Below are positions 17,403-61,822 of a stretch of 64,000 nt of DNA, one piece after another. Position 1 is the first letter of the stretch. The number at the start of each line of letters is the position of its first letter. Made by a program: the position numbers and the translations under genes. The stretch is taken from positions 1,568,001 through 1,632,000 of the forward strand of contig OY781066.1 of the NCBI GenBank assembly GCA_963676395.1, written 5' to 3'. The notes under the pieces are model-generated. The model searched no databases. It saw nothing but the letters and a program-made list of their open reading frames with translations, and was not told the DNA's origin. The DNA is from a bacterium (GTDB lineage Bacteria > Fidelibacterota > Fidelibacteria > Fidelibacterales > Fidelibacteraceae).

Positions 17403-19763
17403 TTATTTAACGAACGCGATCTTCTGTACATCAACGACATCTTCAACCATAATTTTAACTAGGTAAAGACCTGTCGTCATATTGTTGGCAGTAATTTTAA
17501 GTTCATGAGAGCCAGCGTTCATCGTGCCGTTGGCCAATGTTGCAATTTCACGACCTGTTAATGTGTAAACTTTAGCGTTTACAACAGCTTCGCGTGAAAG
17601 TTCTACAGGAACAACCGCTGTAGGATTGAAAGGATTCGGATAGGCAGCACCGATCACGAAATCAGCTTCGACAACATCGTTGGCAAGTGTCACGGTAACA
17701 GCTTTGTCAGCGTATTTTGTTTCTTCGTTTGCGTAATCAACATCAGCTAGAACATAGGTGTAAGCAACACCGGGAACAACGCTTGCATCAGTATAAACAT
17801 AGTTGTTTGTTTCTGATGTTGTACCGGCACCTTCTACAGTGGCCAATACCTCGTTATTACGGTAGATCACAAAGTTAGCATTGTTAGTTTCAGAAGCAGT
17901 TTCCCATGCTAGTTCAATCACACCGGCTTTTGCTTTGGCTGTGAAAGCGGCAAGCTCTACAGCAAGAGGTTGTTCAATGTCATGTGTACCAGGAGTAGCA
18001 TTGCTAATCGCATTCATGTTCCAGTCAGAAGCTGTATTGCCTTCACCTGTCCTCCAAGCTCTTTGACCGCTTGATAATTGTTGATTTGTATATTCATTGT
18101 CAGCTATTGGATCAATATTAGTACCTGTTGCATCTTCGAATAGATATTGTTCGTCACCATTAATTTGGGGACATGCATTCTCTGAATTCACAAAAACAAC
18201 ATTCGCAGCTAAGGAAACTGACCATTCAGTTTCAAAAGCAGCTTGATCCATATTACGTGCTACAATTAAGAAACCCTTGGCAGGAATTGAGGTTGACGCA
18301 GGTATTGTGAAACTTTGAGTTGAACCAATTTGTCTTAAAACATAACTTGAAACATTTACAGCTGAGTTTGTTGAGTTGTAAATTTCAACGTATTCTCCAG
18401 CATAGTTGGCTGCGTCAGCATATTCGCTGATATAAACTCCACTACCTGTAGGCAATGCATCTGTTGTCTCTGAAACAGAGGGCACAACACCATCTGTTTT
18501 GTAATCAATGGCTTCGCCTGAGTTATTATATGGATAGATCTTGAATGTATATGCCGTTTCGGGGTCTAATCCTGTTACTGTAGCTGAAGTGCCACTAACA
18601 TTTTGAACGCTGTCAGCATTCACGATATCAATTTCATCAACAGGAATGTCACCCGTTGCTGTAACAATATAGCCATCTGCATCAGGTGTATTAGGGTCTG
18701 TCCATGATAAGGTAACTGATGTAGATGTTTTTGAGTCGGCAGAAAAATCAGTAATATGAGATGCGGGTTCAGTTTTCCACACATTACCATTTAAAGTAGT
18801 GTTTTTTGTAACTGCACCAGTAGAAGTTGCTGAGATAGTTTCTACATCATAACTGCCAGCACTTAATCCGGCCTTTAATCTTGTATAGATTGTTGTGGCA
18901 GCAATTGAGCCACTTAACTGTGTTAAAGTAATAGGATTAGTTGCAATAAAAGAACCACCGGTTCCTGTAGAAATCTCATAATTTGTGGGAGGAGTAACAG
19001 TAATGTTTGCGGTTAGGTCAGAGCCAGAAACAGTATAAGATTGTTCATACGATGGACCTGAACCCTCAACATATGAAAAACCTGATAATGACGTTTCACT
19101 CACAGTAATTACAGGAGAAGAACCAGCAGCAGTTGTGATAACGATATTATCAAGATAGATACTTTCATCGGTAGCGGTTAGTCCATTAAACTGAAGTTTA
19201 ATTACTAGACTTGTCCCTGAAATTGAAACATTATCTTTTGTAAATGTTTCAAAAGTAGTTCCATCTACTTTATTTTCAGGATCTGAATTCGCTGGTAATT
19301 CTTGTCCGATATCACCATTACCATCAAAGTCTAGATCAAGAGCAGCCGGATCATTGTATTGTTCACCAGTATTTTGAACCCACATAAGATTTTGATCAGC
19401 CCCTCCATCAACAGAGTATGTAATTAACAGTTCATCATTATCGTCCCAATCATTTGCATTTTTCGTAAAAAAATCAATGGAGAAAGAGAATGTTGATTGT
19501 GAGGAAATATCAATTGGTGAGAGGGTAATATTGGGATTTACTAGTGAAATATCTTCGCAAGCCCAATAAAAAGTCGCGTTGCCTCCATAAGAAGTATTCA
19601 CTCGGTTAAACACATCTGTTGTACCAGAACCCTCTGTAGCAGATGCAGTATAACCACTGTTTTCCGTTTCAAAATCAATGGTTGTTGTTGCACCCATCGC
19701 AACAACACTGATCAGTAGCGTAAGTAGTAAGGCAGATGTTAAAAGTTTAGCAATTTTTGTCAT
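17403..19763 (-). CDS. Secreted multidomain protein: Fn3, lamin-tail domain (LTD), C-terminal sorting domain
   Basis: Signal peptide; Fn3 (VTLSWT...TGLDPETAYTFKIYPYN); LTD (YISEYADA...EYVEIYN); PLAVELAAFTA Ig module; AYPNPFNPT...QKIAFVK. Confidence 0.87.
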   Translation of the reverse strand: MTKIAKLLTSALLLTLLISVVAMGATTTIDFETENSGYTASATEGSGTTDVFNRVNTSYGGNATFYWACEDISLVNPNITLSPIDISSQSTFSFSIDFFTKNANDWDDNDELLITYSVDGGADQNLMWVQNTGEQYNDPAALDLDFDGNGDIGQELPANSDPENKVDGTTFETFTKDNVSISGTSLVIKLQFNGLTATDESIYLDNIVITTAAGSSPVITVSETSLSGFSYVEGSGPSYEQSYTVSGSDLTANITVTPPTNYEISTGTGGSFIATNPITLTQLSGSIAATTIYTRLKAGLSAGSYDVETISATSTGAVTKNTTLNGNVWKTEPASHITDFSADSKTSTSVTLSWTDPNTPDADGYIVTATGDIPVDEIDIVNADSVQNVSGTSATVTGLDPETAYTFKIYPYNNSGEAIDYKTDGVVPSVSETTDALPTGSGVYISEYADAANYAGEYVEIYNSTNSAVNVSSYVLRQIGSTQSFTIPASTSIPAKGFLIVARNMDQAAFETEWSVSLAANVVFVNSENACPQINGDEQYLFEDATGTNIDPIADNEYTNQQLSSGQRAWRTGEGNTASDWNMNAISNATPGTHDIEQPLAVELAAFTAKAKAGVIELAWETASETNNANFVIYRNNEVLATVEGAGTTSETNNYVYTDASVVPGVAYTYVLADVDYANEETKYADKAVTVTLANDVVEADFVIGAAYPNPFNPTAVVPVELSREAVVNAKVYTLTGREIATLANGTMNAGSHELKITANNMTTGLYLVKIMVEDVVDVQKIAFVK

Positions 19764-20626: not shown

Positions 20627-21619
20627 TTACATCAATACCACTGCTAAACCCACAAAGTAAAAATCATCGATATTTCGTAGTTGGCCGTGGGGGTTGATAC
20701 CGTGGTAGAGTCTTAAATAAGCACCGACTTTCCGTTGGCTTTTACTTTGATATTCCCAGCCGAAATAGGCATTTATATTCCAACGGCGAGCTTCGGGATC
20801 ATTCGCAAAGTAACCATATTTTACACGGTTTCTAAGCTCAATGGCATTGATTTGATGAAATAATTCGCTGGCACCTAATCCTTGAGTTCTACGCCAATTG
20901 ACTTGTAGCCAATACGAGAAGACATCCTTGCCGGGTAGCAAATCTTGTCCCTGCGTTTCGAGAAGATTATATTGGTAATAACCATCTTTAGCAAACCAAA
21001 CACGTTGTATGCCAATCCTTGCAGATAGCAGATTTCCTTTTAGCGTGTCGGGATCATTGATGGTCAATGCGACTTTCCAGGCTTCGTAGGAGACATTAAC
21101 TCGATAAAAATCCGGGTTAAGATTTATGCCTTCCATGACGAATTCATCCCCCAAATGTGTGCTTTCATGATACATTGGAACAATAATAAGCCCGAGATTC
21201 CTGATGCCTAAGCTTTCTATAGAAGGATGATAAATAACAGACCTGAGTTCCGAACCCAGCCAATAATCCGTGTTGATCACCATTCTTGTTGTGGGTTCAA
21301 GACTATCTAAAATAATATTAAAGGATCCTGTTATTAGTAACGTACTTTTTATGTGACCTTTTTGTAATTTTTTATAATATGACAAGAAGGGGATGTCAGT
21401 ACCGACACGACCCTCGGATACGGGACGTTTGTGATAGTCGGGTTTATGGTATAATTCCCCAAGGTCATTGATAAAGCCTTCTTCAAATTTGATCACAGAT
21501 GAATACATGTCAGATACAAAAGGTTTTCCAAAACGTTCCGGTGTGAAGAACTTATACTCGACGGCAAACAGTGAGCCGGCTAGAAGTATAAGCATGCAGA
21601 TTTTATAAAGCTTTTTCAT
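20627..21619 (-). CDS. Putative outer-membrane protein, DUF1207-like
   Basis: Signal peptide; INTDY, YHESTHLGDEF, YHGINPHGQ; amphipathic beta strands. Confidence 0.6.
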   Translation of the reverse strand: MKKLYKICMLILLAGSLFAVEYKFFTPERFGKPFVSDMYSSVIKFEEGFINDLGELYHKPDYHKRPVSEGRVGTDIPFLSYYKKLQKGHIKSTLLITGSFNIILDSLEPTTRMVINTDYWLGSELRSVIYHPSIESLGIRNLGLIIVPMYHESTHLGDEFVMEGINLNPDFYRVNVSYEAWKVALTINDPDTLKGNLLSARIGIQRVWFAKDGYYQYNLLETQGQDLLPGKDVFSYWLQVNWRRTQGLGASELFHQINAIELRNRVKYGYFANDPEARRWNINAYFGWEYQSKSQRKVGAYLRLYHGINPHGQLRNIDDFYFVGLAVVLM

Positions 21620-22259
21620 GAGTTTTTCTTTTTTTATTGTGATTGATCGTGATGAAGATCAGTCCAAGACAGGAAAATGTGATAAGGATCAATAGAATAA
21701 TGAGTAAATAAGTACCAATCCCCAATGTTTTATAATTTAAAAAGAAATAGCGACTCCGGTAGAAAAAATTCAGTTCAATGATTGAAAAGAAATAATAAAT
21801 AAGGGGATAAATAAGCCAGGAAAAAGCATATTTCCAGCGGTAAACTCCTGTTTGAACACTACGAAGAGTATCAATGGTGAGTAAAACTGCGGTGAGACCA
21901 TGATTAACATACAGTACGATCTTGTTTAAACCTTGTGCTTCGACGCGATTTGTCAGGAGCGCAAGAAAAACCAGTGATGTGGTCATGATATACAGTAATA
22001 CCGCACCGCGAAACCATGGATGAACACCATTGTCACCTTTGCCTTTGAGTTGTGTGATAATGAGCCAAAAAAATAACAAACAGGCCATGATCCCGGATTG
22101 AACAGTGTAATAGCCCAACATATCTAAGGCAGGGTTTATCGTGCTGTCACCAAGCGGATGGGCAAAACGATATGTTATGCCAAAAAGGGCAATTGACAGT
22201 GAGATGATCCTGAAAATCAGAAGTTTTATATTGAGTTTAGATCTCATCTTCTGGTTCAA
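21603..22259 (-). CDS. Pr6Pr / FAR-17a-AIG1-like membrane protein
   Basis: GYYTVQSG, RGAVLLYI, NHG, WLIYPLIY, YFFLN; about 6 TM; start may be ATG 22247. Confidence 0.75.
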   Translation of the reverse strand: MNQKMRSKLNIKLLIFRIISLSIALFGITYRFAHPLGDSTINPALDMLGYYTVQSGIMACLLFFWLIITQLKGKGDNGVHPWFRGAVLLYIMTTSLVFLALLTNRVEAQGLNKIVLYVNHGLTAVLLTIDTLRSVQTGVYRWKYAFSWLIYPLIYYFFSIIELNFFYRSRYFFLNYKTLGIGTYLLIILLILITFSCLGLIFITINHNKKRKTHEKAL

Positions 22260-22884
22260 TGGTATCTTTTGTTCGATTAATAAAAATTATCAACAAGGAT
22301 AAGGCAATAAATACAAGCCCCAAAAGAATAATGGCAATGGGGTAAAGTCTAACATTTTGTTCATTTATGGCAATAAAACGATATCGATCAAAATACAGAG
22401 TATAGGATTCGACAATGATAAAGATAAGATAATAAAAGGGGAATATCATCCAATATAGTAATAGATCATATTTATATGTGTTTTGGGGGATGCTTATATA
22501 ATTATCTGCCAACAGAAAGATTGGAAAAGAAATATGAGCAAAATAATAAATAACTTTTTGCAAACCGTAAATATCAAAATCTTGATGAAAAAACACAACG
22601 AATACCAAGGCTGAAACTCCGGAGTAAACCAGAGTAGCCCCTCTGAAATTATTGTTGGGTGCCCATTTGGGATTTCCGCTTAACTGGGCGATACTTAAGA
22701 AAAGGAAAATGATCGTAGTCATAAGCATTGATACGACAGAAAAATATCCCAATATCTTGAGTATATTAATATAATTCAGTTCATATAAGGGATTTATGAA
22801 CAGAATATATATCATGCAAAATATAGTAATCAAAGATACTATGATACGATAAGTAAGAATTTTCTTTTCTAGTTCCTTTGTCAT
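22237..22884 (-). CDS. Pr6Pr-like membrane protein (paralogue of neighbour)
   Basis: GYFSVVSM, FRGATLVY, AHISFP, WMIFPFYY; about 6 TM. Confidence 0.7.
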   Translation of the reverse strand: MTKELEKKILTYRIIVSLITIFCMIYILFINPLYELNYINILKILGYFSVVSMLMTTIIFLFLSIAQLSGNPKWAPNNNFRGATLVYSGVSALVFVVFFHQDFDIYGLQKVIYYFAHISFPIFLLADNYISIPQNTYKYDLLLYWMIFPFYYLIFIIVESYTLYFDRYRFIAINEQNVRLYPIAIILLGLVFIALSLLIIFINRTKDTIEPEDEI

Positions 22885-23038: not shown

Positions 23039-23064
23039 AAAAAAGGGCGACTAAAGAGCCGCCC
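23039..23064 (-). terminator. Intrinsic terminator closing the 23086-33999 operon
   Basis: Minus strand GGGCGGCT-CTTT-AGTCGCCC-TTTTTT. Confidence 0.8.
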
Positions 23065-23085
23065 GTAAATTATCTGAGATAATGA

Positions 23086-24720
23086 TTATTTAATAATTGT
23101 CCATCGTTGATCAATTTGGGTTGTTGGCCCAAACTCCAGGATATAGTCACGCAATGCTTCGCGCATCATGCGTCCGGTATTAATTCGTTTCTCAACCGGG
23201 ATAGTCGTTAAGCGATCATAGCCCGAGTTTCCTTCGGCAAGATAATCGGATACGGCGATCTTGTAAATGGCTTTTGGATCAAATTCTTTACCTTGTATCT
23301 TTTTAATGGTAGCGCGTTCACGGTCGGGATTGCGTTTATCAATAACAACCTCAATACCTGAAGCAAGCATGCCGCGAGAATTACCCTTTACGCGATCTTC
23401 GATTAGCTCGTCCAGTTCGGCACCTGTCATTTGAAATACAACAATGCGGTTTCCAAAAGGCAAGAATCGGAAAAGAGCCTCGTAGGTTAAAGGACCGGCT
23501 TCAAGGTCGGAACGCAGTCCACCGTAATTGGAGAAAGCCACATCGGCATCTCCGGCCCAGGCAACTGCATCACAAAGCAGGTTACCCAAAATTGATTGAC
23601 CTTCGTTTGCGCGACGCAGAGGTGAGGGCAAGACGGTCAAAACTTGGTCAAAGCCTTCTTCGGCAACAGCTTTGCGGGCTTCGATCATGGCATCTACATC
23701 TTCATCGATCCAGAATTCATCTTCCAGTAGTGTAACAAAGGAAGATCCATCCACCTCAAAATCATAACCGGCGAGGGTTTTAGTTTTTTTATGGATGTAA
23801 AAATTCACCATACCCAAGTTTGTTCCGTTACCGTAGTTCTGAAAGATCAGAGTATGGTTAATGGGATCTTCGTAGGGTTCGGTAAAACCTTTGTGAACGT
23901 GGCCTGTGAACATGACATCGATACCGGGAACCGATACGGCAATTTCCATAGCGGGAGCACCCATTTTGTTTTCATCCGGCCATTCGCCACGCAGGAGCTC
24001 TTCATGAAGTTTTGCGGCTTCTTCATCGCGATTGTAAGGAGTCCAGGAGTGCGTAGATAAAATAATTACATCCGCACCTTCTTCCTTCATAATGGGAATC
24101 CATTTCTTGGCTGTTGTGATCTCGGGTAAAAAGGTAATACCTTCCAAGTGCTCCGGAAAGCTCATAGCCGGTGTTACGGAAGTACCGATACCCAAAATAC
24201 CCACTTTTATACCGTAGATATCTTTAATGATATACGGTTTTAAAAAATCGGCAATTTCACCGGTCTCGGAATTGACGATATTGGCACCAAGGAAAGGAAA
24301 ATTTGCTTCCTTAGCACGTTTGCGTAGTTCCGTGTGACTCTTGTCAAAGTCGTGATTTCCGGCTGTTAAAAGGTCGTATCCAATCGCATTCATGAATTCC
24401 ACAACCGCAGCGCCTGCAGTTTTTGAACCGACGGGTGTTCCTGAAAAGAAATCACCTTCATCGATAAGCAGCGTGCCAAAACCTTCGGCTTCCGCTTGAG
24501 CACGAATGGTTTTTACAATGCGTGCAATCGCTGGAGCTGACCCGATCTTTGGCGGAAACTGTGGATTCATAAAGGTTGCTTCGGTGCGGGGAATACCACC
24601 ATGCACATCATTGGTGAACATCACCATAATGCGCTGGTACTCAGAGGCAGGGTATTTTTCCGCAAAGAGCGCGCCGATCAGCAGAGTGAAAACGACGATC
24701 TTCTTTATTGTATTCAGCAT
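23086..24720 (-). CDS. Exported bifunctional metallophosphoesterase / 5'-nucleotidase
   Basis: Signal peptide; TNDVHG, DEGD, GNHDFD, GHVH; C-domain NYGGLRS, PFGN, DYLAEG. Confidence 0.93.
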   Translation of the reverse strand: MLNTIKKIVVFTLLIGALFAEKYPASEYQRIMVMFTNDVHGGIPRTEATFMNPQFPPKIGSAPAIARIVKTIRAQAEAEGFGTLLIDEGDFFSGTPVGSKTAGAAVVEFMNAIGYDLLTAGNHDFDKSHTELRKRAKEANFPFLGANIVNSETGEIADFLKPYIIKDIYGIKVGILGIGTSVTPAMSFPEHLEGITFLPEITTAKKWIPIMKEEGADVIILSTHSWTPYNRDEEAAKLHEELLRGEWPDENKMGAPAMEIAVSVPGIDVMFTGHVHKGFTEPYEDPINHTLIFQNYGNGTNLGMVNFYIHKKTKTLAGYDFEVDGSSFVTLLEDEFWIDEDVDAMIEARKAVAEEGFDQVLTVLPSPLRRANEGQSILGNLLCDAVAWAGDADVAFSNYGGLRSDLEAGPLTYEALFRFLPFGNRIVVFQMTGAELDELIEDRVKGNSRGMLASGIEVVIDKRNPDRERATIKKIQGKEFDPKAIYKIAVSDYLAEGNSGYDRLTTIPVEKRINTGRMMREALRDYILEFGPTTQIDQRWTIIK

Positions 24721-24759
24721 AATGTGCCTTTTACTTTTTCGTTATAACATTCTTCTTTA

Positions 24760-26088
24760 TCAGAAGCTGTACGATAATGAAACATTCGCCCTTAAACCTT
24801 GTTCCTTGACTTTGTCAAGCGAGGTTCTAACTTCTCCTTCAACAGGGAAAAGATCTTTGTAATAGTACATGTTCTGATAAATAGCCAGGCCTAGATCCAG
24901 TGTTAAGTTATCATTGGACCAGCCTGAACCCAAGTTAATGGTCATGCGGTTCATGTCATTGTGCATGGGGTTTTCTTCATATGAAAATCCGAAACGAAGA
25001 GGAACACCGGTAAAGAATTCATGTTCAACACCGGCACGAAGTGCCCATGATGCCGAGAATTCAGGAGAATACAGGTTCACAAGTGAGTCTGCAGAATCAA
25101 AGTAACCGATGGCGTATGATTTCCAGTCGGTAATATCAAATTGTGCGAACAGAACCGTACGTAATTCGTTTTCGGGAATATATTTAACAGAGAATGAATA
25201 TACATTGGGACGATCAATGATCACATCATAAGAAGTGTCGGCAGAAACATTGTAGGCGGGAAGCATAAGTGAGCTATCCATACCGGCAACGAGATTTGAA
25301 CCTTCCAATGTATAAATACCGGCCAGGTTGGCGTGAAGACCCAATTGAAGTCTATCGTTTACCTGTGCGCTAATACCTAAGTTAATATTCGTACCATCAC
25401 CATTCATGGGATTGACTGTTACAAAGGTAGTATCCTTTGATGAAAGCTTAGGATCGTTCATAATGGGAACAACACCAAAAGCCTCTGTCAGTCCGGCTGA
25501 AAAATAATGTGTATAACCGTAACCTATAGCCAAGCGTTTGCCGATATCATGTGCTATGGCTACATTGAATCCATGGTTGATACCTGAGATATCAATGAGG
25601 TGCAAACCGGCCAAAGGATCACGGTTGTAGGCGCCGCTTCCCAAGTCACTGCGAATTTCTTCACGATACTGATAATTAAAGTTTTCCAGCGTATACCAGC
25701 CGGCCGTTAATGAGAAACCTTTTTGTGAGTAATACATGGCAAGGTCGCCTTCAAAGCGTTGAAAACGGTTTGAGACATAGTCATTTTCGGCAAGGTAATC
25801 GCCGAAGCTATCCTGAACGGGGAAAGAACGGCGTTCGATAAATGACTCTGTATTCAAATTAGCATAGATGCCAAAAGCATCATCTTTAGAATAGAGAGTC
25901 GCCGGGTTGTTTAAACCTGCTACGGGGTGCAACCCCAAAGCAAGTGCATTACCACCAACTGCCAATGAACGAGCGGATTGTTTGTTAAAGTTCTCCATAC
26001 CCATATATTTAAAATAGGCCTGGCCGAACGCGAATCCCACGCTTAGACAGATGATCAATAATAATGTTAAAAGGTGTTTGCGAGTCAT
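24760..26088 (-). CDS. Outer-membrane beta-barrel (FadL/PorV-like N-terminus)
   Basis: Signal peptide; SARSLAVGG...NNPATL; C-terminal beta-signal ANVSLSYSF. Confidence 0.72.
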   Translation of the reverse strand: MTRKHLLTLLLIICLSVGFAFGQAYFKYMGMENFNKQSARSLAVGGNALALGLHPVAGLNNPATLYSKDDAFGIYANLNTESFIERRSFPVQDSFGDYLAENDYVSNRFQRFEGDLAMYYSQKGFSLTAGWYTLENFNYQYREEIRSDLGSGAYNRDPLAGLHLIDISGINHGFNVAIAHDIGKRLAIGYGYTHYFSAGLTEAFGVVPIMNDPKLSSKDTTFVTVNPMNGDGTNINLGISAQVNDRLQLGLHANLAGIYTLEGSNLVAGMDSSLMLPAYNVSADTSYDVIIDRPNVYSFSVKYIPENELRTVLFAQFDITDWKSYAIGYFDSADSLVNLYSPEFSASWALRAGVEHEFFTGVPLRFGFSYEENPMHNDMNRMTINLGSGWSNDNLTLDLGLAIYQNMYYYKDLFPVEGEVRTSLDKVKEQGLRANVSLSYSF

Positions 26089-26108
26089 ACTCTTTTCCTT
26101 TTTATAAT

Positions 26109-28568
26109 TTAAAAGCGGTAATCCAGTTGGAGCCTGAAATCATTCTTGCTCATATTATAATTAAAGTTGCTCAACTGGAGCTGCGAACCGTCATCCAGTT
26201 CTATATAAGCTTCAACGATATTATCCTGTGTGAGACGGGTATCCACGGTGTACTTGAAGCGTAGGGACAGGTTGTCTGTAATACGTGAGTACAAGGTGAT
26301 CCAACCACGGAAAGCATCTACGGGAGAATCGGTCACGCGGAAATCCGTATCCTCAAAGTTCCAGATAAAGCCATTGTAGACCATGGCGGAGCCAATGATC
26401 TTCAGGCGATCGTTAAAGTTATGTGTAAATCCCATGCGGATACCTTTTGACGGGGATCCTGCATTTCCAACAAAGGAGCTGCCACCACTGGTGGTATAAA
26501 CCAACCGGGCTCTCGGTGAGAATTCCGTGTAACCGTAGATCAAGTCAAAATGCAACTTGTTAAAACGTGACAAACGGAATTCGTTGGTTAGGATAGTCTC
26601 GTAAGAGCGGTATACATTTGATGTAAAGAAGTTTTCACCGTAACGGCTTTGCCATTTTTGACGTAGTCGCACACGATAGTTGAATACCGGACGGTATTCC
26701 ATTCTTGCTACCAAACGATTGTATTTTGCACGGTCTGCAGCGCGCTCCCAGATATCGTGTTCAACGGTCGCTATTAGCGAGCGAGAAAGCTGATAACGGA
26801 AGGAATAATATAAACCTTCTTCGGATTGCGGTTGCGAAGATCCCGAATAGAGGAAGCCGTAAGCATCATCATTCAGGTAGTAAATATCTTCGTAGATCGT
26901 GGTTTTATAACGGGCATAGTTCGAAAATGAGCGCTGGTAGGGATTATCGAAGGCTAGATCATAATTCCTGTATAGCGCAAGAAAGTTTAAGTTCTCGAAT
27001 TGCCAGTACATATTCACGGTCCATGCAAAAGCATCTTCGGAGATATTGAATATCTTGCCGTCTTTATCAAGAATACCCAGTTCTCCCTGAAATACAACAT
27101 TCTTAAGAGAATAGGAAAAATCCATTCCCATCACACGGCGATAGGCTTTGGCTTTGCTCCACAAACCGGATCGAGCGTTCGATTCGTAGGTGGCTGCAAT
27201 TTCGGCATCTGCCGAGTTTCCTATTTGGTTGAGGTATTTTGACATGTTTGCGATAATGACCTCGGGTTGGAAATCCAACTGACGGTCATAAAGACTTTCG
27301 TAGAAAGTAAAGCCCAGGTGACCATTGGGGATAGGCTTAATACGAATGTTAGAACCGTAAAGCAGTTCGTGAACATTGTTCATAAGTCCCAATGACACAT
27401 TGCCGCCCAAACCATTGTCCAATCTCGGTTCCATACGAATGAAGGTCGAGAATGAAGAGTCAGGATTCAGGATAGCATCACGGGTATTGTATCCAACGAA
27501 AGGTGTAATAAACAAAGGACCTGCCTGATATTCAAAGGTAAAACCGTTTTGTGAGTAGGCACGGGCACGAGAGGCATCACCGTTAATACCGATAAGTCGC
27601 TTACGCCAGCCGTAACCGGATTTTCGCGGTGCGAAATAATCCACGGTTTCCATTACCACACCTTGTCCGAAAGATGCAATGTAGTTACCGGCAATAATCT
27701 TATTGATCTTGCCGAACTTGCCTAAATCAATATTACGTGCGGAAACATAAGCTTTTACCTGTGGAATTTTCGAGCTGTCTCCAAAGGTGGGAATGTTTTC
27801 GCTAAGCGATTGAGTATAAGCAAGCCCTAGTGAGTATTTTTGACCATAATTCAAGTGGAACTTATAATATTGATCCAAAGGATACTTATCGTAAACCGTT
27901 TGATCCAGAAGTGATCCACCGTCATCAGGTGTTATCTGAGCGGCAAAGTCTTTAATGGTAGCTGTTGCGTAACCGTTAAATTTTTCTTTATCGTCAGACG
28001 AGTATTTTACGTAATCGGATATATTTCTGTATCCGTAATATGAAATGCCGTTTAGTCCGCGCAGGTCACGGGAGGTTTTGATCTCGTTTCCATCTTTGAT
28101 ATGTTTCATCACGGCTGCAGCATCAATAGGAGAAACTGCAGGGAGGTTAACAAGATCGAAATAGTGCATCCCGTTCACATCCCGGGGATTTGTAAAAAGA
28201 TCAATCCAGGATTCGACCAGGCCTTCGGAGGCTCCTTCATCATTCATCATATTCTCAAGCTTATAGTATCGATCTTCTATCTTGCTTGAGGTTTCGTCGA
28301 TATTAATTTTAGGGAAGATGGCGACTTCTTGTTTTAAGACAAGAAATTCTTCATAGCTGATCCCTTTGATATCTTTGATCTGATAAATGGATGTAAATTC
28401 ACCATGGTAAAGGAGATATTCTTCCAAAAGAAGAATGGTATTCTCCGATACCGGGAGATCTTTCAGAGCATCCGCGGAGGCATTGTTGATGTCAAGCTTT
28501 GCTGTTGCCGACAGCATTGCGGGCAGCAGAAAAGCGATCAAACATAATATGTGAAAAGTTTTTTTCAT
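26109..28568 (-). CDS. Helix-hairpin-helix (ComEA-like) domains fused to a large outer-membrane beta-barrel
   Basis: LDINNASADALKDLP, GEFTSIYQIKDIKGI, DLVNLPAVSP, SRDLRGLNGI; GNYIASFGQG; ends FRLQLDYRF. Confidence 0.82.
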   Translation of the reverse strand: MKKTFHILCLIAFLLPAMLSATAKLDINNASADALKDLPVSENTILLLEEYLLYHGEFTSIYQIKDIKGISYEEFLVLKQEVAIFPKINIDETSSKIEDRYYKLENMMNDEGASEGLVESWIDLFTNPRDVNGMHYFDLVNLPAVSPIDAAAVMKHIKDGNEIKTSRDLRGLNGISYYGYRNISDYVKYSSDDKEKFNGYATATIKDFAAQITPDDGGSLLDQTVYDKYPLDQYYKFHLNYGQKYSLGLAYTQSLSENIPTFGDSSKIPQVKAYVSARNIDLGKFGKINKIIAGNYIASFGQGVVMETVDYFAPRKSGYGWRKRLIGINGDASRARAYSQNGFTFEYQAGPLFITPFVGYNTRDAILNPDSSFSTFIRMEPRLDNGLGGNVSLGLMNNVHELLYGSNIRIKPIPNGHLGFTFYESLYDRQLDFQPEVIIANMSKYLNQIGNSADAEIAATYESNARSGLWSKAKAYRRVMGMDFSYSLKNVVFQGELGILDKDGKIFNISEDAFAWTVNMYWQFENLNFLALYRNYDLAFDNPYQRSFSNYARYKTTIYEDIYYLNDDAYGFLYSGSSQPQSEEGLYYSFRYQLSRSLIATVEHDIWERAADRAKYNRLVARMEYRPVFNYRVRLRQKWQSRYGENFFTSNVYRSYETILTNEFRLSRFNKLHFDLIYGYTEFSPRARLVYTTSGGSSFVGNAGSPSKGIRMGFTHNFNDRLKIIGSAMVYNGFIWNFEDTDFRVTDSPVDAFRGWITLYSRITDNLSLRFKYTVDTRLTQDNIVEAYIELDDGSQLQLSNFNYNMSKNDFRLQLDYRF

Positions 28569-28583
28569 GCGTTTGCCAATGCT

Positions 28584-29486
28584 TTATGGTTTGTAGATCT
28601 CCACTGTGAAAAAGTGCGTTCCGTTCAGTACCGGGTGGCTGACGTAGGCATAATCTATTCTAAAAATAGATTGTTTTACACCAAAGCCAAAGGTCAACTG
28701 TGAGGGATAAGTAGATACGCCGGCACGAACGTTGAACCATTCGCTGATGGCATAATCCAGTCCCATACGGTACTGAGCATCAAGTCCCTGGACTTTTTCC
28801 ACTTCAAAGGAGGTGGTTAATCCATAGTAGGGCATGTAACCCAAGCCGGCCACGAATTTACGAGGCGCCATGGCTTCGGTTTCCGAAGAACCCAATTTGG
28901 GAGCATTGATGTTTTTAATGGCAATGCCCATCCAGGCACGATCTCTTAATGACGCTTGCAGACCCAAGTCAACACCAAGACCGGCAACCGAACCGAGGTC
29001 GATACCATCGGAGCCGTCACCGCTTTGTCCGGCAGATTGTCCGTAATCCACTAGCAGCAAGTTAAGAGAATAACCGGCGCTGAAAGATGAGCGCAGATCT
29101 TTGATAAGATGGAAAGCATGGGTTACACCCACGGCGTTTTCCGAGCTGAGAATGTTGTCACCGTTTTTGGTGCGAAGCATATCTCCGTGCAGGGAAACAC
29201 TTCCATATTTTTCGTTGATCGGAAGCGTTGCGGTGAACATGGCAAGTGAAGCAAAGCCATATGAACCCGGGTTGGTATAGGCAAAACCACCGCCGATATT
29301 ATCAACGAATGCCAAGCCGGCCGGGTTGTATGAATGTGCCCACATACTCTGGTTCACAGCCACCTGAGCACCACCGCTTGCCGCACCCGCAGCCGCTCCG
29401 GGCCATGAGTCGGTAAACACTTGTGCTGAAAGGCTGGCGATCAACATAATAGATATAAGTAATCGTTTCATAAGCATGTATCTCAT
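28584..29486 (-). CDS. PorV/PorQ-like outer-membrane barrel
   Basis: Signal peptide; GGAQVAV....AHSYNPAGLA, GVDLG, IKNINAP, IDYAY..HP.L..TH. Confidence 0.72.
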   Translation of the reverse strand: MRYMLMKRLLISIMLIASLSAQVFTDSWPGAAAGAASGGAQVAVNQSMWAHSYNPAGLAFVDNIGGGFAYTNPGSYGFASLAMFTATLPINEKYGSVSLHGDMLRTKNGDNILSSENAVGVTHAFHLIKDLRSSFSAGYSLNLLLVDYGQSAGQSGDGSDGIDLGSVAGLGVDLGLQASLRDRAWMGIAIKNINAPKLGSSETEAMAPRKFVAGLGYMPYYGLTTSFEVEKVQGLDAQYRMGLDYAISEWFNVRAGVSTYPSQLTFGFGVKQSIFRIDYAYVSHPVLNGTHFFTVEIYKP

Positions 29487-31450
29487 TAGTTTTTAATGGC
29501 GATGACCACGGGTTGAGCCAAACGTGTGACTTTACCGGTGGAGCGTTCAATAACTTCCATATGCATCAGGTAAGTACCGGGAGCAAGACTGCGATTGAGT
29601 TCGTCTCGACCGTTCCAGTTTTTCTCCAGTGACCAACTTACACCGTGATATTCATCGGTGAGCGTGGTGATATAACGACCTGCAGCATCATATACACGAA
29701 TGATCACACGGGCTTCATCGGGATATTCGTATGTGTATTGAATGGTTTCGCCAAGTTGAGGTACAAAGGGATAAGGTGCAACGTTCAAGGAAACATTGCC
29801 TGCGCCCGGTTCACCATCGGTCCATGCGACAATATCCGAAGCATAAGCCGGCGTCATCTGTGCCGAATTGCTGTAGAACCCAACAATACCTGTAACTTCT
29901 ACGGCGTTTCCGCTTTGAAGAAGTGAATCGGCTGTTGCATCCGAGAGGAGATTTGTCGAATCCCAAATGCGCAGGGTCAATGACTGGTTCCCATCGTCGA
30001 TCGTGATATTAGAACCGCCGCCAATACCGTCTGCACGGTCGGTGACCTGTCCCTTAACCGTAACTAATGTACCTTCGAGTTCCATAAAGTTATTATTCAA
30101 TGCAGCGTTGCTCAATTCGGCGATAGCGGGAAGATCCGTTGTGCCTTTTGCAACTGCCGTTACATCTTTAATCTGTTTGGAATCGTTATATTGTGAAAGC
30201 GTACCTGTTACTTCAACGATAGTACCGCGTGCAAAGCCGCTCATAGCTGAGCCAAACACATAAATTCCGCGACCGGAATCATCTTGAATGTAAGAAGCAT
30301 AGGTGTTGATAAGTCCCATTTCAACCGTTACAACGGCTGTAACCGTTACGGTTGTTTCTTCTAAAGTGTCAAAGTTGTTACGCAGGTAAGCAATGGATTG
30401 AGTTTCAACAAAAGCCTCAATGCTTTTTGAGGAAGCTAAGGTCGAGTCTTTAAGCCCCAATGTGTTTTCTGCACGAACATAGTAGGTAAAAGTACCCGTT
30501 GCTCCGAGAGGGGCAATGCTGAGTGCGTAGCTGTTTGCTTCGTCACCGGCGGGCATATCTACGATCTCGGTCGTTCCGTCAAAAGTATAAACACATTCAA
30601 CCGAAGATAAACCTTGAACATCAACAACCGTGGCTGAGATATGCAGGGTATCGTTTTCATTGGGTGACGTGGGGTCAAAAACAACATTACTGAGAACCGG
30701 ACGTGATGAAGCCAACGTTGTTACCTGCCAGGTTGTACCCAGATTTTCAGAGGTTTCATCGTTGCCGGTGATACCATTACCGCCGGATGTGGTTTCTGAC
30801 CCTTCGCTTTCATCAATACGTGCCAGCTTTTCACCGTCTATATGCACGGGCAAGGAAGCCTGGCTTGTAACCGGTGTATCGTTTAGGTAAGTGGCCACAC
30901 CGCTTTTATTAACGCCATGTGAGGTATTACCCCAAAGTAAGTAATCAACGTCCTGAACCGTTGCCGCCGAACCGTCCCATGTGAACAGGACAAGGGTCTC
31001 AGCAGTGTTATCCAGTTTTGCGTTAGGTGAAGCCCCGATGGTTTTTACGCCATCAACGGCATAACGCATGGTGTCGTTACCGCTACCTTTAAGGTAAAGA
31101 TCCGGGAGTTCACCGTATTCGCTTTGATAGTCCGAATCACGGCCTAGTCCCAATGTGATGCTTTCGCCGGCTGCCAAAGACATAGCAGGGAAGCGGGCGA
31201 TAAAATCGGATCCGCTGCCTGACCAATAATCGGCGCCATCGGCGAGTTTGTAATAGTATTTTCCGTTTGTCGTATCGGTTGCATCGGTAATATAGTAATT
31301 ATCAAGAGAAATGGCCGAAGCGGTCGGATTCTTGATTTTTACATATTCGCCGGTGGAAGGCTGGAGCACCACTTCAGTGAAGATAAGGTGCCCCTGAGCC
31401 ATTGCCAATATCGGCAAAAGGAAGAGGATGAATAGATTGCGTAGTTTCAT
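29486..31450 (-). CDS. Secreted LTD + Ig + tandem OB-fold protein with FlgD-like C-terminal domain
   Basis: LIFTEVV...EYVKIKNPT (LTD); YIQDDSGRGIYVF, VEVTGTLSQY, ITIDDG, VEVTGIVGFY (OB folds); PYPFVP...VYDAAGRYITTL...WNGRDE...PGTY. Confidence 0.82.
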   Translation of the reverse strand: MKLRNLFILFLLPILAMAQGHLIFTEVVLQPSTGEYVKIKNPTASAISLDNYYITDATDTTNGKYYYKLADGADYWSGSGSDFIARFPAMSLAAGESITLGLGRDSDYQSEYGELPDLYLKGSGNDTMRYAVDGVKTIGASPNAKLDNTAETLVLFTWDGSAATVQDVDYLLWGNTSHGVNKSGVATYLNDTPVTSQASLPVHIDGEKLARIDESEGSETTSGGNGITGNDETSENLGTTWQVTTLASSRPVLSNVVFDPTSPNENDTLHISATVVDVQGLSSVECVYTFDGTTEIVDMPAGDEANSYALSIAPLGATGTFTYYVRAENTLGLKDSTLASSKSIEAFVETQSIAYLRNNFDTLEETTVTVTAVVTVEMGLINTYASYIQDDSGRGIYVFGSAMSGFARGTIVEVTGTLSQYNDSKQIKDVTAVAKGTTDLPAIAELSNAALNNNFMELEGTLVTVKGQVTDRADGIGGGSNITIDDGNQSLTLRIWDSTNLLSDATADSLLQSGNAVEVTGIVGFYSNSAQMTPAYASDIVAWTDGEPGAGNVSLNVAPYPFVPQLGETIQYTYEYPDEARVIIRVYDAAGRYITTLTDEYHGVSWSLEKNWNGRDELNRSLAPGTYLMHMEVIERSTGKVTRLAQPVVIAIKN

Positions 31451-31461
31451 AGTCACTCTTC

Positions 31462-33999
31462 TTATTTAATGAGAACAACTTTCTGAGTTGCGACATTGTT
31501 GTCAGCATTCAAGCGAATAAAATAAACACCTGATGTGAAGTTTGACGCATTCCAGACGTATTTATAAACACCGGCTTGAGCGTAACCCGATGAAAGGACA
31601 CTCATGTTCTGACCGGCGATATTGTAAACCGAGATCTCATAATCGGATGCTTCCGTTAATGAGAATTCAATGGTTGTTGAAGGGTTAAAGGGGTTAGGGT
31701 ATGCTTTGTTAATTGCAAAGCTTTCGGGGGTACAGTCTTCGCAAATGCTTACATCATCTGTAATGTCATCGCTGTAACCAACGAGTAATTGATGTTCGCT
31801 TGAGTATTTGCTGCCTACACCTGTGATGGCATATTCTGTACCAATGGTGTAAGTTGAAGGATCAATTCCGGTGGTTGGCCATACTTTAACAATGGCTGAG
31901 TCAGTTCCCGAGGTTAAGATCATATTCTTGGAGGATGAGAAATCTTGAACTTCGGAAAGTGTACCGGTAACGGTAACCAATGTACCTTCGTAATTATCGT
32001 TGTTGGCTGTTGCCGGCGTTGCCGAAATGGCATCGGGGCGAGCATTACCGGTAGAAACAATCGTATAACTGAAATTTTTCAGTTCAACAGTTGAGTAGTA
32101 AAGGTCAACTTCACCGACCAACTTAACCTTTGTGCCTTTTGTCAAGTCAGCTAATAATTCGTAGTTGTATAGATTTAAACCACGACCTGATTCATCTTGA
32201 ATGTAGCAAGAGGTCATATCGTTGCGAAGAACGCCGGCGCCGATGGTGATAATACCTTCGATGGTTTTTGTTTGGCCGTCCCATGCAGTAATATTGGTAT
32301 GGATGTCGGCGATATTTGTGACCGTACCTGCTACAAGCATAGTTTTAAGCGCAGAATTAACGGTTTCACCGTTTCCTGTAGCTGCTACATAATATTCAAG
32401 TTCGATGTCACCTGTACTCAATGCGGGGATATTACCGGCATAAGTATTGCCATTATCTAACCACATGTCAGCTTCGTTTGTCTGAGTTCCGCCGGTACCA
32501 TAAAACACTTTAACGGTGCTGGGTGCGGGAACACCGGTGTCGGGAGTGATATCAATGGTGATACCAATTTCTGAACCGGCTTGTGGGAAAGCTGTTGTAA
32601 CGGTTGCATTTGCAAAGTTATAAGCAACAGGGCCCGCTGTATGTGAACCAAGATTGCTTGTTACATCGATGTCGTAAACGATCCATTCAGAATTTTCTTC
32701 CGTTGTACCGGCTGAAGAAGCCCAATCTGAGTTACCGGCTTCTACAGAAGCTTTACGAACCAAGGTGTGATTTACTGCAGCGCCTGTAACTCCGGCTGCA
32801 TCAAAGTTGGCATCGGAATTCGGATCGCCGATCACATCAACCAATACATCGTTTAAAAATAGACCTAAAGCATCGTTTCCGTTAAACCAGGTAATGTCGC
32901 TGGTAACATCAGAATTACCTGTAATGTTTGCATCGCTGGCACCATCATTGGTGATCACGTAAACATCATTACCGGCAAGCGTACCGCTAAGAACAAGCTC
33001 TGAACCTGATCCCCAGCCGCCACCATTTGATGCGCGAACGACTTTATAATCACCAAGATTAACTGAGTTTTCATCTAAGTTGTAAATTTCAACCGCTTTA
33101 TTGCTTGATGAACCTTCAATATATTCAGAAAAGATCAGCTTAGTTTCTTGTACTTCGCGAACTGCGATAACAACTGTATCTCTTGAGATTTCGCCCAAAC
33201 TGTCAGTTACGATCAATTCAAAATGAAAGTCTTGAACAGTGGCCGGGGCTGTAAATGTTGCTATGGCTGTATTTGCATTGCTTAGAGTTGGTGAAATTTG
33301 AGTTCCCCAAGACATGGCCCATTGATAAGCAGCAATATTGTCATTAGGGTCTGTAGAGCCTGAACCGTCTAAGGTGACAGTTTCATTTACAAAAACCAAT
33401 TGGTCTGCACCTGCATCAGCTACAGGAGGATAGTTTGTTCCAGCAGCTAATACCTGGCCCGTATTGATGGCGCCGGGTGAGTTAGCAGTTGCTGCCCATG
33501 GAGAACCATCTAAACCAATTCGGGATAATGATGTGTCGGCAGCACCAACCCATTTATCGTCTCTATCTACTGAAGCGATTTCCATTGGATTACCCGAAAG
33601 GTCATTTAATTCACCTTCGTAGGTAACGGCATCTACAACTGTACCGTCTACGGTAAGTTGAACGCCGTCAGGGGATCCATTTTGGATTAGGTTTTCTGCA
33701 GGAGTTACTGTCATGTCAACATTTGTGACACCGGCAACGCCAATAACATAAAAACCATATCCGTCAGCTTCGTTTGTTAGTGTAATATTACCTACGGTAA
33801 TGGTCTTGTATGAAGCACCATCATTACCATTGACCAAATCAATGACAACGTTGTTGTAGGTTCCGGCAGTACCTGCCAGTTCAATAAACTCAGCGGCATC
33901 TGTGCCGGGCTGATCGTAATCAATCTCGTTGATGAACAATTGTCCATACGCTGCTACAGACAGTACGAGTAGCATGAGAATTACAAGGTTCCGTTTCAT
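31462..33999 (-). CDS. Secreted protein: two LTDs, PKD-like, Ig, tandem OB folds, C-terminal sorting domain
   Basis: GGAGG RBS; INEIDYDQPGTDAAEFIEL, PVADAGADQ, FSEYIEGSSSNKAVEIYN, YIQDESGRG, EGTLVTV, AYPNPFNPST...QKVVLIK. Confidence 0.87.
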   Translation of the reverse strand: MKRNLVILMLLVLSVAAYGQLFINEIDYDQPGTDAAEFIELAGTAGTYNNVVIDLVNGNDGASYKTITVGNITLTNEADGYGFYVIGVAGVTNVDMTVTPAENLIQNGSPDGVQLTVDGTVVDAVTYEGELNDLSGNPMEIASVDRDDKWVGAADTSLSRIGLDGSPWAATANSPGAINTGQVLAAGTNYPPVADAGADQLVFVNETVTLDGSGSTDPNDNIAAYQWAMSWGTQISPTLSNANTAIATFTAPATVQDFHFELIVTDSLGEISRDTVVIAVREVQETKLIFSEYIEGSSSNKAVEIYNLDENSVNLGDYKVVRASNGGGWGSGSELVLSGTLAGNDVYVITNDGASDANITGNSDVTSDITWFNGNDALGLFLNDVLVDVIGDPNSDANFDAAGVTGAAVNHTLVRKASVEAGNSDWASSAGTTEENSEWIVYDIDVTSNLGSHTAGPVAYNFANATVTTAFPQAGSEIGITIDITPDTGVPAPSTVKVFYGTGGTQTNEADMWLDNGNTYAGNIPALSTGDIELEYYVAATGNGETVNSALKTMLVAGTVTNIADIHTNITAWDGQTKTIEGIITIGAGVLRNDMTSCYIQDESGRGLNLYNYELLADLTKGTKVKLVGEVDLYYSTVELKNFSYTIVSTGNARPDAISATPATANNDNYEGTLVTVTGTLSEVQDFSSSKNMILTSGTDSAIVKVWPTTGIDPSTYTIGTEYAITGVGSKYSSEHQLLVGYSDDITDDVSICEDCTPESFAINKAYPNPFNPSTTIEFSLTEASDYEISVYNIAGQNMSVLSSGYAQAGVYKYVWNASNFTSGVYFIRLNADNNVATQKVVLIK

Positions 34000-34270
34000 T
34001 TAAATTCCTCCATTAAATTATTTTAGTTTTTTTCTGCCAATTGATTAAAATACAAGATTTTAGCTCGCAAAGAAATAAATTTATTATATAATTAAAGTAT
34101 ATTGTATAAAAAGCTGTATGGCATAATAAATTACAATTGTTCGATGATGTATCGAGAAGATATTAAAATAGTCGAAAAGTTGGTAAAAAGAGAGTTGAAA
34201 AATCGATATTATTGATTCCAGCATCCCCATCACAGGTCACAGATCACCGACAAATAATTACAGAAAATAT

Positions 34271-34323: not shown

Positions 34324-34596
34324 TTAGTTTACAGCTTCTTTAAGTTTTTTAGCAGCTTTGAATTTTACATTCTTAGAAGCGGCGATTTTGATTTTTTCGC
34401 CTGTTTTAGGGTTAACACCGTCGCGAGCTGCGCGTTCGGCAACCTGAAAAGTACCCAAACCTGCTACAGCAAATTTTTCGCCTTTTTTGACTTCTGCTAA
34501 TAGTGTTTCAACAAATGCATCAACAACTTTTTCAGCTTCAACTTTTTTAATGTCGGCGGCATCAGCCAATACTTTCAACAGTTCATCTTTTTTCAT
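34324..34596 (-). CDS. hup: HU family DNA-binding protein
   Basis: GLGTFQV...RAARDGVNPKTGEKIKIAA...FKAAKKLKEAVN; AAGGAG RBS. Confidence 0.95.
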   Translation of the reverse strand: MKKDELLKVLADAADIKKVEAEKVVDAFVETLLAEVKKGEKFAVAGLGTFQVAERAARDGVNPKTGEKIKIAASKNVKFKAAKKLKEAVN

Positions 34597-56286: not shown

Positions 56287-56302
56287 AATTCCTTCCTTTT
56301 GC

Positions 56303-58117: not shown

Positions 58118-58144
58118 AATCTCCTCCTGTGTGTGTTTGGGTTA

Positions 58145-59959: not shown

Positions 59960-59983
59960 AAGTTTCTCCTGTGTATTGAATTA

Positions 59984-61798: not shown

Positions 61799-61822
61799 TC
61801 TAAGCTCCTGTGCGTTCGCTTA

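Follow-up and report, generated by a model that had tools for sequence, protein, structure and literature searches.

The window examined here – the whole 64,000-nt stretch of contig OY781066.1, taken from a Marinimicrobia genome assembled into one contig of 2.34 Mb, with a marker-based completeness of 95% – contains an operon of six minus-strand open reading frames (ORFs; 23086–33999), whose predicted products suggest an outer-membrane system for handling extracellular nucleic acid. In the direction of transcription, these genes are g1 (31462–33999), encoding an 845-aa cargo protein of the type IX secretion system (T9SS) with the domain order (LTD)–PKD–LTD–Ig–OB–OB–type A C-terminal sorting domain (CTD); g2 (29486–31456, with a GTG start), encoding a predicted secreted protein of 656 aa with the order LTD–Ig–OB1–OB2–CTD-like β-sandwich; g3 (28584–29486), for a 300-aa outer-membrane barrel that is a divergent member of the PorV/PorQ superfamily; g4 (26109–28568), for an 819-aa protein comprising a signal peptide, two modules of paired helix–hairpin–helix (HhH) motifs, or (HhH)2, and a β-barrel of about 24 strands ending in DYRF; g5 (24760–26088), for a 442-aa FadL/TodX-like outer-membrane barrel ending in SYSF; and g6 (23086–24720), for a 544-aa UshA-like 5'-nucleotidase/phosphoesterase with a signal peptide and without a CTD. 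Read from their sequences, all six proteins begin with a signal-peptide-like N-terminus, and none has a lipobox Cys at the cleavage site.

The genes are all co-oriented and closely packed, with intergenic distances of 5, −1, 15, 20 and 39 nt from g1 to g6, and an intrinsic-terminator-like hairpin with a T-run (23064–23045, minus strand; 8 pairs, 6 of them G–C, tail TTTTTTATAT) closes the operon 22 nt past the g6 stop codon. The ORF calls and this hairpin bear out an earlier note on this DNA, which had described six co-oriented genes with gaps of at most 39 nt and a closing terminator. On the upstream side, another terminator-like hairpin (34299–34270, minus strand; 13 pairs, 6 G–C, T-rich tail) sits directly past the stop codon of a small gene of 90 codons and would mark the 5' boundary of the operon’s transcription unit. 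The two hairpins flanking the six genes are the strongest minus-strand ones of the region, and terminator-like sites are enriched as a class (22, compared with 11.9 ± 4.1 in shuffled sequences). Between the upstream hairpin and g1 lies an AT-rich intergenic leader (34000–34269, minus strand), with a GGAGG ribosome-binding site 7 nt ahead of the g1 ATG, which is the presumed promoter region; it holds a promoter-like match at 34124–34083, and such matches are no more frequent than expected by chance (26 versus 27.7 in shuffles). The G+C content is 0.43–0.47 across 24–34 kb (window positions 24001–34000) versus 0.35–0.40 in the 10 kb flanking it on each side, and an Rfam scan of the window found no RNA family.

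The g4 barrel and the proteins around it

In the AlphaFold2 (AF2) model of g4 – with a predicted local distance difference test score (pLDDT) of 79.8 and a predicted template-modelling score (pTM) of 0.75 – helices occupy residues 22–184 and strands residues 197–818. These correspond to two tandem ComEA/EEPD1-like (HhH)2 modules, at about 22–88 and 125–190, followed by a barrel at 197–818, with 24 of the predicted strands being at least six residues long; the barrel that the earlier note had predicted for this gene is thus seen in the model. The Pfam scan of g4 itself at E ≤ 0.01 returns HHH_3 only, at 22.1 bits compared with a cut-off of 27. The same family (PF12836) is nonetheless precomputed for most g4 homologues, and a profile of 36 of them, compared with the PDB, matches the tandem HhH region of EEPD1 (1.3e-13, in two stretches) and ComEA (8dfk, 8e-7). 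At the structural level, residues 21–85 superpose on ComEA (8dss) with a Z-score of 9.7 and a root-mean-square deviation (rmsd) of 1.7. In outer-membrane proteins, the segment ahead of the first barrel strand lies in the periplasm; since the HhH modules precede that strand, this usual topology would make them periplasmic, and they are probably located there in the manner of ComEA rather than on the cell surface.

The barrel is harder to place. Neither Pfam nor NCBIfam has a model that matches it, and Foldseek and VIA searches with the g4 model gave no specific barrel family. The superpositions that are best by rmsd and coverage are with the usher pores FimD (Z 13.1, rmsd 4.5, 365 residues aligned) and PapC (Z 12.8, rmsd 4.8, 363 aligned), which are 24-stranded, while the highest Z-score belongs to Wzi (Z 16.4, rmsd 6.2, 330 aligned), with an alignment that begins in the helices before the barrel. 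The PapC and FimD ushers, MtrB, Wzi and AlgE all resemble g4 in barrel size and fold but have no sequence relationship to it (8–10% identity), the similarity being generic and carrying no functional inference. Conserved charged residues in the predicted barrel strands number 19 Lys/Arg versus 9 Asp/Glu, which would fit a polyanion-conducting lumen. As the earlier note had stated, the operon appears to have no TonB/SusC component: Pfam finds no TonB, Plug or SusC domain in it, and specifically no Plug, TonB or TonB-dependent receptor domain in g4. With this library, Plug, TonB_dep_Rec and CarboxypepD_reg are found in a different protein of the genome, and the genome as a whole has nine TonB-dependent receptors.

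Judged by sequence, g4 represents an uncharacterised family defined by two HhH modules and a barrel. This family is small and compact, with 164 of 1.84 billion cluster representatives matching at E ≤ 1e-30, many of them fragments. One member of 1251 aa (P0196) carries an N-terminal extension of about 435 residues, its HhH–barrel match beginning at residue 436.

Upstream of the barrels, Pfam and NCBIfam place in g1 a PKD domain (189–280), an LTD (286–391) and a type A T9SS CTD (767–842; 49.7 bits to TIGR04183, cut-off 23, and 46.1 bits to PF18962, cut-off 27), together with weak OB matches at 602–706 that fall on the OB portion at the N-terminus of the ExeM/NucH model. The domain calls of the earlier note are largely upheld by Pfam, AF2 and profile comparisons, except that Pfam is silent on the N-terminal LTD in the window’s g1; it is called in orthologues, with two LTD stretches in loci L035, L036 and L038. 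The C-terminal half of g1 is paralogous to g2 (tblastn cross-matches at 27–29% identity), in which Pfam detects an LTD (19–164) and an OB domain (PF01336, 465–534; 34.3 bits, cut-off 27). The AF2 model of g2 (mean pLDDT 82.6) is divided into an LTD (18–250), an Ig domain (250–350), OB1 (about 351–445), OB2 (446–546) and a C-terminal β-sandwich (556–652), and its low pTM of 0.44 is expected from such a beads-on-a-string arrangement. The best match of OB2 in VIA is the anticodon-binding domain of AspRS (Z 13.0, rmsd 2.1, 91 residues aligned), followed by AsnRS, MCM, RPA, Stn1 and PolC. Foldseek ranks the p204 HINab–dsDNA complex first (E 3e-8) and PorU second, with the low template-modelling scores (TM-scores) that a model of many domains entails. 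The LTD is found in all 18 g2 orthologues scanned and PF01336 in 14 of them; the C-terminal sandwich gives weak PorU-tail and FlgD_ig-like signals and no firm CTD call.

In the Pfam scan, neither g1 nor g2 contains a nuclease or other catalytic domain, including that of the endonuclease/exonuclease/phosphatase (EEP) family. Orthologues nevertheless extend the repertoire of these putative binders: in 5 of 20 proteins at the g1 position, DUF5689 (PF18942) scores above the Pfam cut-off (34.8–50.2 bits), taking the place of the second LTD of the window’s g1. Within the window, g1 has no Pfam match to DUF5689, and g2 matches it on OB2 at 22.3 bits, under the cut-off of 28.6. The genome encodes a T9SS translocon, with SprA (TIGR04189) scoring above cut-off at C1:1332372–1338401, so cargo with CTDs can be exported. 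Two further T9SS cargo proteins are encoded in the window, neither of them conserved beside the operon in relatives: a 786-aa protein with fn3, LTD and CTD (17403–19763, minus strand) and a 559-aa uncharacterised protein with a CTD (11250–12929, plus strand).

The two smaller barrels both score under the cut-offs of the families that they resemble. The g3 protein scores 52 bits against the PorV/PorQ model NF033709 (cut-off 90); its orthologues match this model in 20 of 20 cases, all under the cut-off (best E 6.7e-19), and PorV (6h3i_F) is matched at E 0.0057. About ten g3 paralogues are found in the genome, seven of which exceed the NF033709 cut-off. From its sequence, g3 is a divergent PorV/PorQ relative and not a canonical member of that group. 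In the case of g5, the single sequence scores 25.1 bits against PF03349 (FadL/OMPP1/TodX), under the cut-off of 29.7, and the family profile matches TbuX (2.9e-14), chain F of the Bacteroides thetaiotaomicron β-barrel assembly machinery (BAM) complex (1.4e-12), FadL (7e-12) and PorV (1.8e-7) in the PDB. Elsewhere in the window, the gene at 48536–49492 (minus strand) encodes a further divergent PorV/PorQ barrel (NF033709, 52.9 bits, matching window positions 49022–49381), adjoined by a 466-aa ORF without a Pfam match (49631–51031).

Conservation of the cluster and its alternating hydrolase

Conservation was followed in two sets of loci that share genomes and partly overlap, and are not independent: 20 loci from 13 Marinimicrobia families (set 1), and the best 80 of 277 g4 relatives in GTDB species genomes (set 2), for which the counts cover loci with flanks that are long enough. 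Of 201 genomes sampled from the phylum, 98 have a relative of g4; for those of good quality the figures are 60 of 141. In set 1, g3, g4 and g5 adjoin one another in a single orientation in all 20 loci, g2-like and g1-like genes precede them where the contig extends far enough (one locus is cut short), and a homologue of gene 6 lies directly downstream in 19 loci and divergently upstream in the remaining one. In set 2, every testable locus has each of the partners – g1 (34/34), g2 (46/46), g3 (62/62), g5 (70/70) and the N-terminal domain of gene 6 (60/60). The earlier note had named gene order in relatives among the tests of its proposal, and the order is indeed kept across Marinimicrobia in both sets.

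Outside the phylum, contigs whose g4 is 60–69% identical to a protein named Calditrichia keep g3–g4–g5, and a more distant contig has g2-like, g3, g4 and g5 genes and a 5'-nucleotidase. Further full-length g4 homologues come, by source name, from Calditrichota, Lentisphaeria (one), Candidatus Edwardsbacteria, WOR-3, TA06 and Elusimicrobiota (one); a language-model look-up points to Cloacimonadota as additional carriers of the family, which we treat as a lead only.

The last gene of the cluster is constant in one half and variable in the other. In the window, g6 combines Metallophos (PF00149, 46.3 bits) with 5_nucleotid_C (PF02872, 109.1 bits), its metal-site motifs (DVHG38, GDFF89, GNHD121 and GHVH273) are intact, and it scores 186.7 bits against the UshA equivalog without reaching the cut-off of 600. 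Together with the signal peptide, these features substantiate the exported 5'-nucleotidase of the earlier note, and because that signal peptide comes without a CTD, the enzyme is presumably periplasmic. Across the loci, the Metallophos half of gene 6 is always kept and the C-terminal half alternates: by tblastn in 57 testable loci, 32 have an EEP domain only, 21 a 5'-nucleotidase domain only, 4 have both and none has neither, so that EEP is present in 36 of 57. The proteins measure 544–564 aa with the 5'-nucleotidase C-domain (found in the window’s clade) and 626–667 aa with EEP (found in other families), and one homologue of 1002 aa has two EEP domains. Pfam confirms EEP in all six gene-6 proteins scanned for it (E 2e-9 to 2e-30). 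These Metallophos–EEP proteins have signal peptides, and each ends in SDHRP, which we take to be the motif with the EEP catalytic His.

The window’s genome also encodes an exported, stand-alone EEP protein (PF03372) of 291 aa at C1:2068669–2069544 (L132:2669–3544, minus strand). This protein, with a signal peptide and a Cys, shares 28–42% identity with the EEP domains fused in gene 6 of other families and could be the nuclease that this clade’s operon lacks.

Several genes around the operon lie outside the conserved unit. The 90-aa ORF directly upstream (34324–34596, minus strand), which has its own terminator, encodes a putative DNA-binding protein, its translation resembling the HU/IHF type. 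Downstream of g6, the genes at 22237–22884, 21603–22259 and 20627–21619 have no tblastn match in 20 related loci, and the LTD/fn3/CTD gene at 17403–19763 has a match there through its CTD only; none of these four genes belongs to the cluster. Near the far end of the window (54463–63640, minus strand) are five tandem paralogous genes of the AMP-binding (acyl/aryl-CoA ligase-like) type, encoding proteins of 586–607 aa, each with AMP-binding and AMP-binding_C_3 domains.

Relation to known DNA-uptake systems

The earlier note knew of no characterised system with this complete layout. Related ones do exist, described in PMC12478041 and PMC8459023, so the layout has precedents; in the literature searched, DUF5689 comes up in these two studies. 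In Bacteroides thetaiotaomicron, ddbABCDEF is needed for depletion of exogenous DNA; the locus encodes three nucleases (DdbA, DdbB and DdbF), a TonB-dependent transporter (DdbC) and DdbD, a DUF5689 protein whose AlphaFold model resembles the HIN domain of p202 (PMC12478041). DdbC and DdbD are homologous to a pair of proteins from Riemerella (PMC12478041). In Riemerella anatipestifer, transposon mutants in RA0C_RS04920 (DUF5689/DUF5017) and in the adjacent barrel gene RA0C_RS04915, whose product bears a carboxypeptidase-regulatory-like domain, are non-transformable, and the predicted periplasmic HhH protein RA0C_RS02645, ComEC, ComF and DprA are likewise required for transformation (PMC8459023). 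Outer-membrane loci for DNA utilization or uptake have thus been known as a kind since 2021–2025, and the operon described here is a variant of them. At the same time, we found no description of the HhH–barrel fusion, of its family or of this operon in the literature (open-access and bioRxiv full text).

The closest known system is ddbABCDEF. Both are six-gene loci that combine an OB/DUF5689-type binder (predicted here to be on the surface), an outer-membrane barrel and exported hydrolases, one of them a periplasmic enzyme with a signal peptidase I (SPI) signal; DUF5689 is common to DdbD and 5 of the 20 g1 orthologues, and similarity to the OB folds of HIN/p20x proteins is common to DdbD and g2, the latter with p204 as its top match. 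The differences lie in the parts themselves. DdbC is TonB-dependent and has a plug, whereas g4, with its roughly 24 strands and the HhH modules at its N-terminus, lacks Plug and TonB_dep_Rec; the binders here end in a T9SS CTD (g1) or a CTD-like sandwich (g2) but are lipoproteins with signal peptidase II (SPII) signals in ddb; two small barrels, PorV-like and FadL-like, are additional here; and the window’s enzyme is a 5'-nucleotidase, in contrast to the ddb nucleases. In R. anatipestifer, a DUF5689-type surface protein, a barrel and HhH modules let DNA enter with neither pilus nor secretin; a barrel and HhH modules are also combined here, DUF5689 occurs in g1 orthologues, and both genomes have ComEC. 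However, the Riemerella HhH protein is separate and its barrel is of the TonB-receptor type, whereas here HhH is fused to a different barrel; transformation itself has been seen in Riemerella.

Other resemblances concern individual modules. The extracellular nucleases of the ExeM/NucH and YhcR type share the LTD–tandem-OB front half (partial matches to NF033680 and NF033681), and the operon also has their EEP or Metallophos/5'-nucleotidase catalytic modules, EEP being the catalytic domain of ExeM/NucH. Here, however, the modules are split over separate genes, with binders (g1 and g2) that lack a catalytic domain and the enzyme encoded by gene 6, and the scores against the ExeM/NucH families are far under their cut-offs (77 versus 1300 bits for g1; 27.3 versus 300 bits for g2), with profile positions 17–200 and 29–132 only being matched. 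ExeM can do without its LTD but requires both the tandem-OB region and EEP (PMC6085458). ComEA, which acts as a ratchet in DNA uptake (PMC3879209), has (HhH)2 modules homologous to those of g4 and likewise predicted to be periplasmic; yet it is a small stand-alone receptor of about 100–230 aa, whereas the g4 modules are tandem, net acidic, degenerate in their hairpins and fused as the N-terminus of an 819-aa barrel protein.

The same genome contains a second uptake-type cluster (C1:2089520–2101901; L131:1520–13901, minus strand). First comes an uncharacterised protein of 716 aa, then one of 883 aa that begins with an OB region like that of ExeM/NucH and ends in a T9SS CTD; a lipoprotein-like protein (506 aa) and a CarboxypepD_reg–Plug–TonB-dependent receptor (899 aa) follow, and the row is completed by a PorV-family barrel of 320 aa that scores above cut-off, another lipoprotein-like protein (451 aa) and a GDPD phosphodiesterase. 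Its logic – T9SS binder, PorV-like barrel, transporter and phosphoesterase – is that of the six-gene operon, but its transporter is a TonB-dependent barrel like DdbC and RA0C_RS04915, unlike g4.

A proposed route for extracellular nucleic acid and its alternatives

From what was observed – the arrangement of the genes, the domains and folds assigned to their products, how widely the cluster is kept and which domains are swapped – we lean, by a little, towards reading the operon as a TonB-independent outer-membrane system that captures, imports and degrades extracellular nucleic acid. In such a system, g1 and g2 would be exported by the T9SS and displayed on or near the cell surface, where their OB/DUF5689-type modules would hold DNA or RNA, and g3 might – this is a guess, by analogy with PorV and PorP-type proteins – retain them through their C-terminal sorting domains. 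The conduit would be g4, with its barrel of about 24 strands and many conserved basic strand residues, and its HhH modules at the periplasmic mouth would either hold the incoming polymer as a ComEA-like ratchet or gate the pore. Degradation would be finished in the periplasm by the gene-6 enzyme – the 5'-nucleotidase in the window’s clade, the Metallophos–EEP fusion in others – possibly assisted in the window’s genome by the unlinked exported EEP protein, whereas g5 could, again as a guess, be a channel for nucleosides and other small products or a structural partner. Compared with the logic of ddb, T9SS delivery would replace the lipoproteins, g4 would replace the TonB-dependent transporter, and gene 6 would play the part of DdbB.

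The foraging interpretation of the earlier note is retained in part. It agrees with the layout, the g4 barrel, the conserved order, the absence of TonB, the presence of SprA, and the links through EEP, DUF5689 and HIN-like domains; as far as sequences go, the EEP swap in gene 6 and the DUF5689 domains of g1 orthologues strengthen the connection to nucleic acid. A number of observations nonetheless weigh on the other side. By Pfam, the window’s operon has no nuclease, its only enzyme being the 5'-nucleotidase, and EEP and Metallophos enzymes also act on phosphoesters other than nucleic acids; moreover, two of the Calditrichia-like contigs lack gene 6 after g5. The fold of the g4 barrel matches generic large barrels, with TM-scores of at most 0.32 in Foldseek, and the window’s own HHH_3, DUF5689, PorV and FadL matches are all under curated cut-offs. 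The putative binders are acidic, with net charges of −72 for g1 and −43 for g2, and of −5 and −10 for the two OB domains of g2, and all 36 family members have a net negative charge in the HhH region (−3 to −21), where only five basic columns are conserved at ≥70%. The HhH hairpins, read from the sequence as LPVSE and KGIS, are degenerate, whereas those of ComEA are Gly-rich and of the GIG type. Because of these acidic regions and degenerate hairpins, DNA binding is not assured. Binding by g1 and g2, if any, may need divalent cations; as the T9SS protein encoded at 17403–19763 is equally acidic (−67), acidity may also be a property of the organism’s surface proteins in general.

Part of this evidence would suit an alternative that we regard as unlikely, namely that the cluster scavenges another phosphodiester or polyanion, such as teichoic-acid-like polymers, phospholipid head groups, polyphosphate or nucleotide sugars, with the OB domains and LTDs binding the glycan or polyanion and HhH serving for protein contacts only. 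Acidic binder and HhH domains would be in keeping with this, as would the facts that OB folds also bind oligosaccharides and that the LTD is without an assigned function in the account of PMC6085458. The EEP and Metallophos families include phosphoesterases that are not nucleases, enzymes of the UshA type hydrolyse UDP-sugars, and the second locus in the genome pairs its OB/CTD protein, PorV-like barrel and TonB-dependent transporter with a GDPD phosphodiesterase. What such a substrate would leave unexplained is the coincidence of three independent modules linked to nucleic acid – HhH of the ComEA/EEPD1 type, DUF5689 with HIN-like tandem OB folds, and the ExeM-type combination of LTD–OB with EEP. 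Less probable still, to our mind, is that g3, g4 and g5, rather than serving import, make up a dedicated platform by which g1 and g2, or some other surface structure, are exported or attached, the enzyme gene being just a neighbour. PorV/PorQ/PorP-type barrels do work in shuttling and anchoring T9SS cargo, CTD-type domains are present on g1 and g2, and the g4 barrel is near usher translocation pores in size, as in its superposition on FimD. Against this, export is already provided for by SprA in this genome, no role of HhH modules in secretion is known, and gene 6, kept in all 60 testable loci, is too constant to be a chance neighbour.

The same outer-membrane parts could instead serve natural transformation, g4 together with g1 and g2 bringing DNA to the periplasm for ComEC in place of the type IV pilus/secretin route, in parallel with R. 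anatipestifer and in possible coexistence with foraging. We hold this to be improbable as the main function, even though the window’s genome encodes ComEC, no secretin (PF00263) was found in it or in its genus (0 of 21 sampled genomes), and R. anatipestifer is reported to depend for transformation on a DUF5689 protein together with an outer-membrane barrel and a protein with HhH, a ddbB-like nuclease also being reported as a neighbour of those genes. The genome has a separate small, canonical ComEA-like gene elsewhere, and secretin and g4 co-occur in most families – in 26/26 and 19/26 genomes, respectively, of family f5, and in 26/30 and 22/30 of family f9 – without a complementary pattern. 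A degradative phosphoesterase or nuclease is, in addition, a constant member of the cluster in Marinimicrobia, and such a constant hydrolase favours catabolism over transformation, although the cluster may have a side role in feeding ComEC. The idea that g4 is a general substitute for the secretin/pilus route was rejected, since 141 of the 201 genomes sampled from the phylum encode a secretin, and most of the g4-bearing families are among them.

Within the preferred reading of the operon as a nucleic-acid uptake and degradation system, a bolder and rather doubtful step would be to regard g4 as a third route for nucleic acid across the Gram-negative outer membrane, beside the secretin/type IV pilus and the TonB-dependent transporters of the DdbC type. 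This route would be a passive, wide, basic-lined barrel, fed by T9SS-displayed OB/DUF5689 binders that dedicated PorV-like barrels hold in place, and it would gain its directionality from the HhH modules at the periplasmic mouth and from periplasmic hydrolysis. Coupled to it, and equally tentative, is the proposal that the g4 family is distributed among members of the Fibrobacterota–Chlorobiota–Bacteroidota (FCB) group other than Bacteroidota, namely Marinimicrobia, Calditrichota, WOR-3, Edwardsbacteria, TA06 and perhaps Cloacimonadota.

The dark ocean and oxygen-minimum zones are rich in Marinimicrobia (SAR406), and extracellular DNA makes up a major reservoir of phosphorus, nitrogen and carbon there (PMC8289736). 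If the proposed function is correct, neither a pilus nor a secretin nor TonB energy is needed for DNA to cross an outer membrane, and the operon would provide a concrete, phylum-wide mechanism by which uncultured Marinimicrobia use the extracellular DNA pool.

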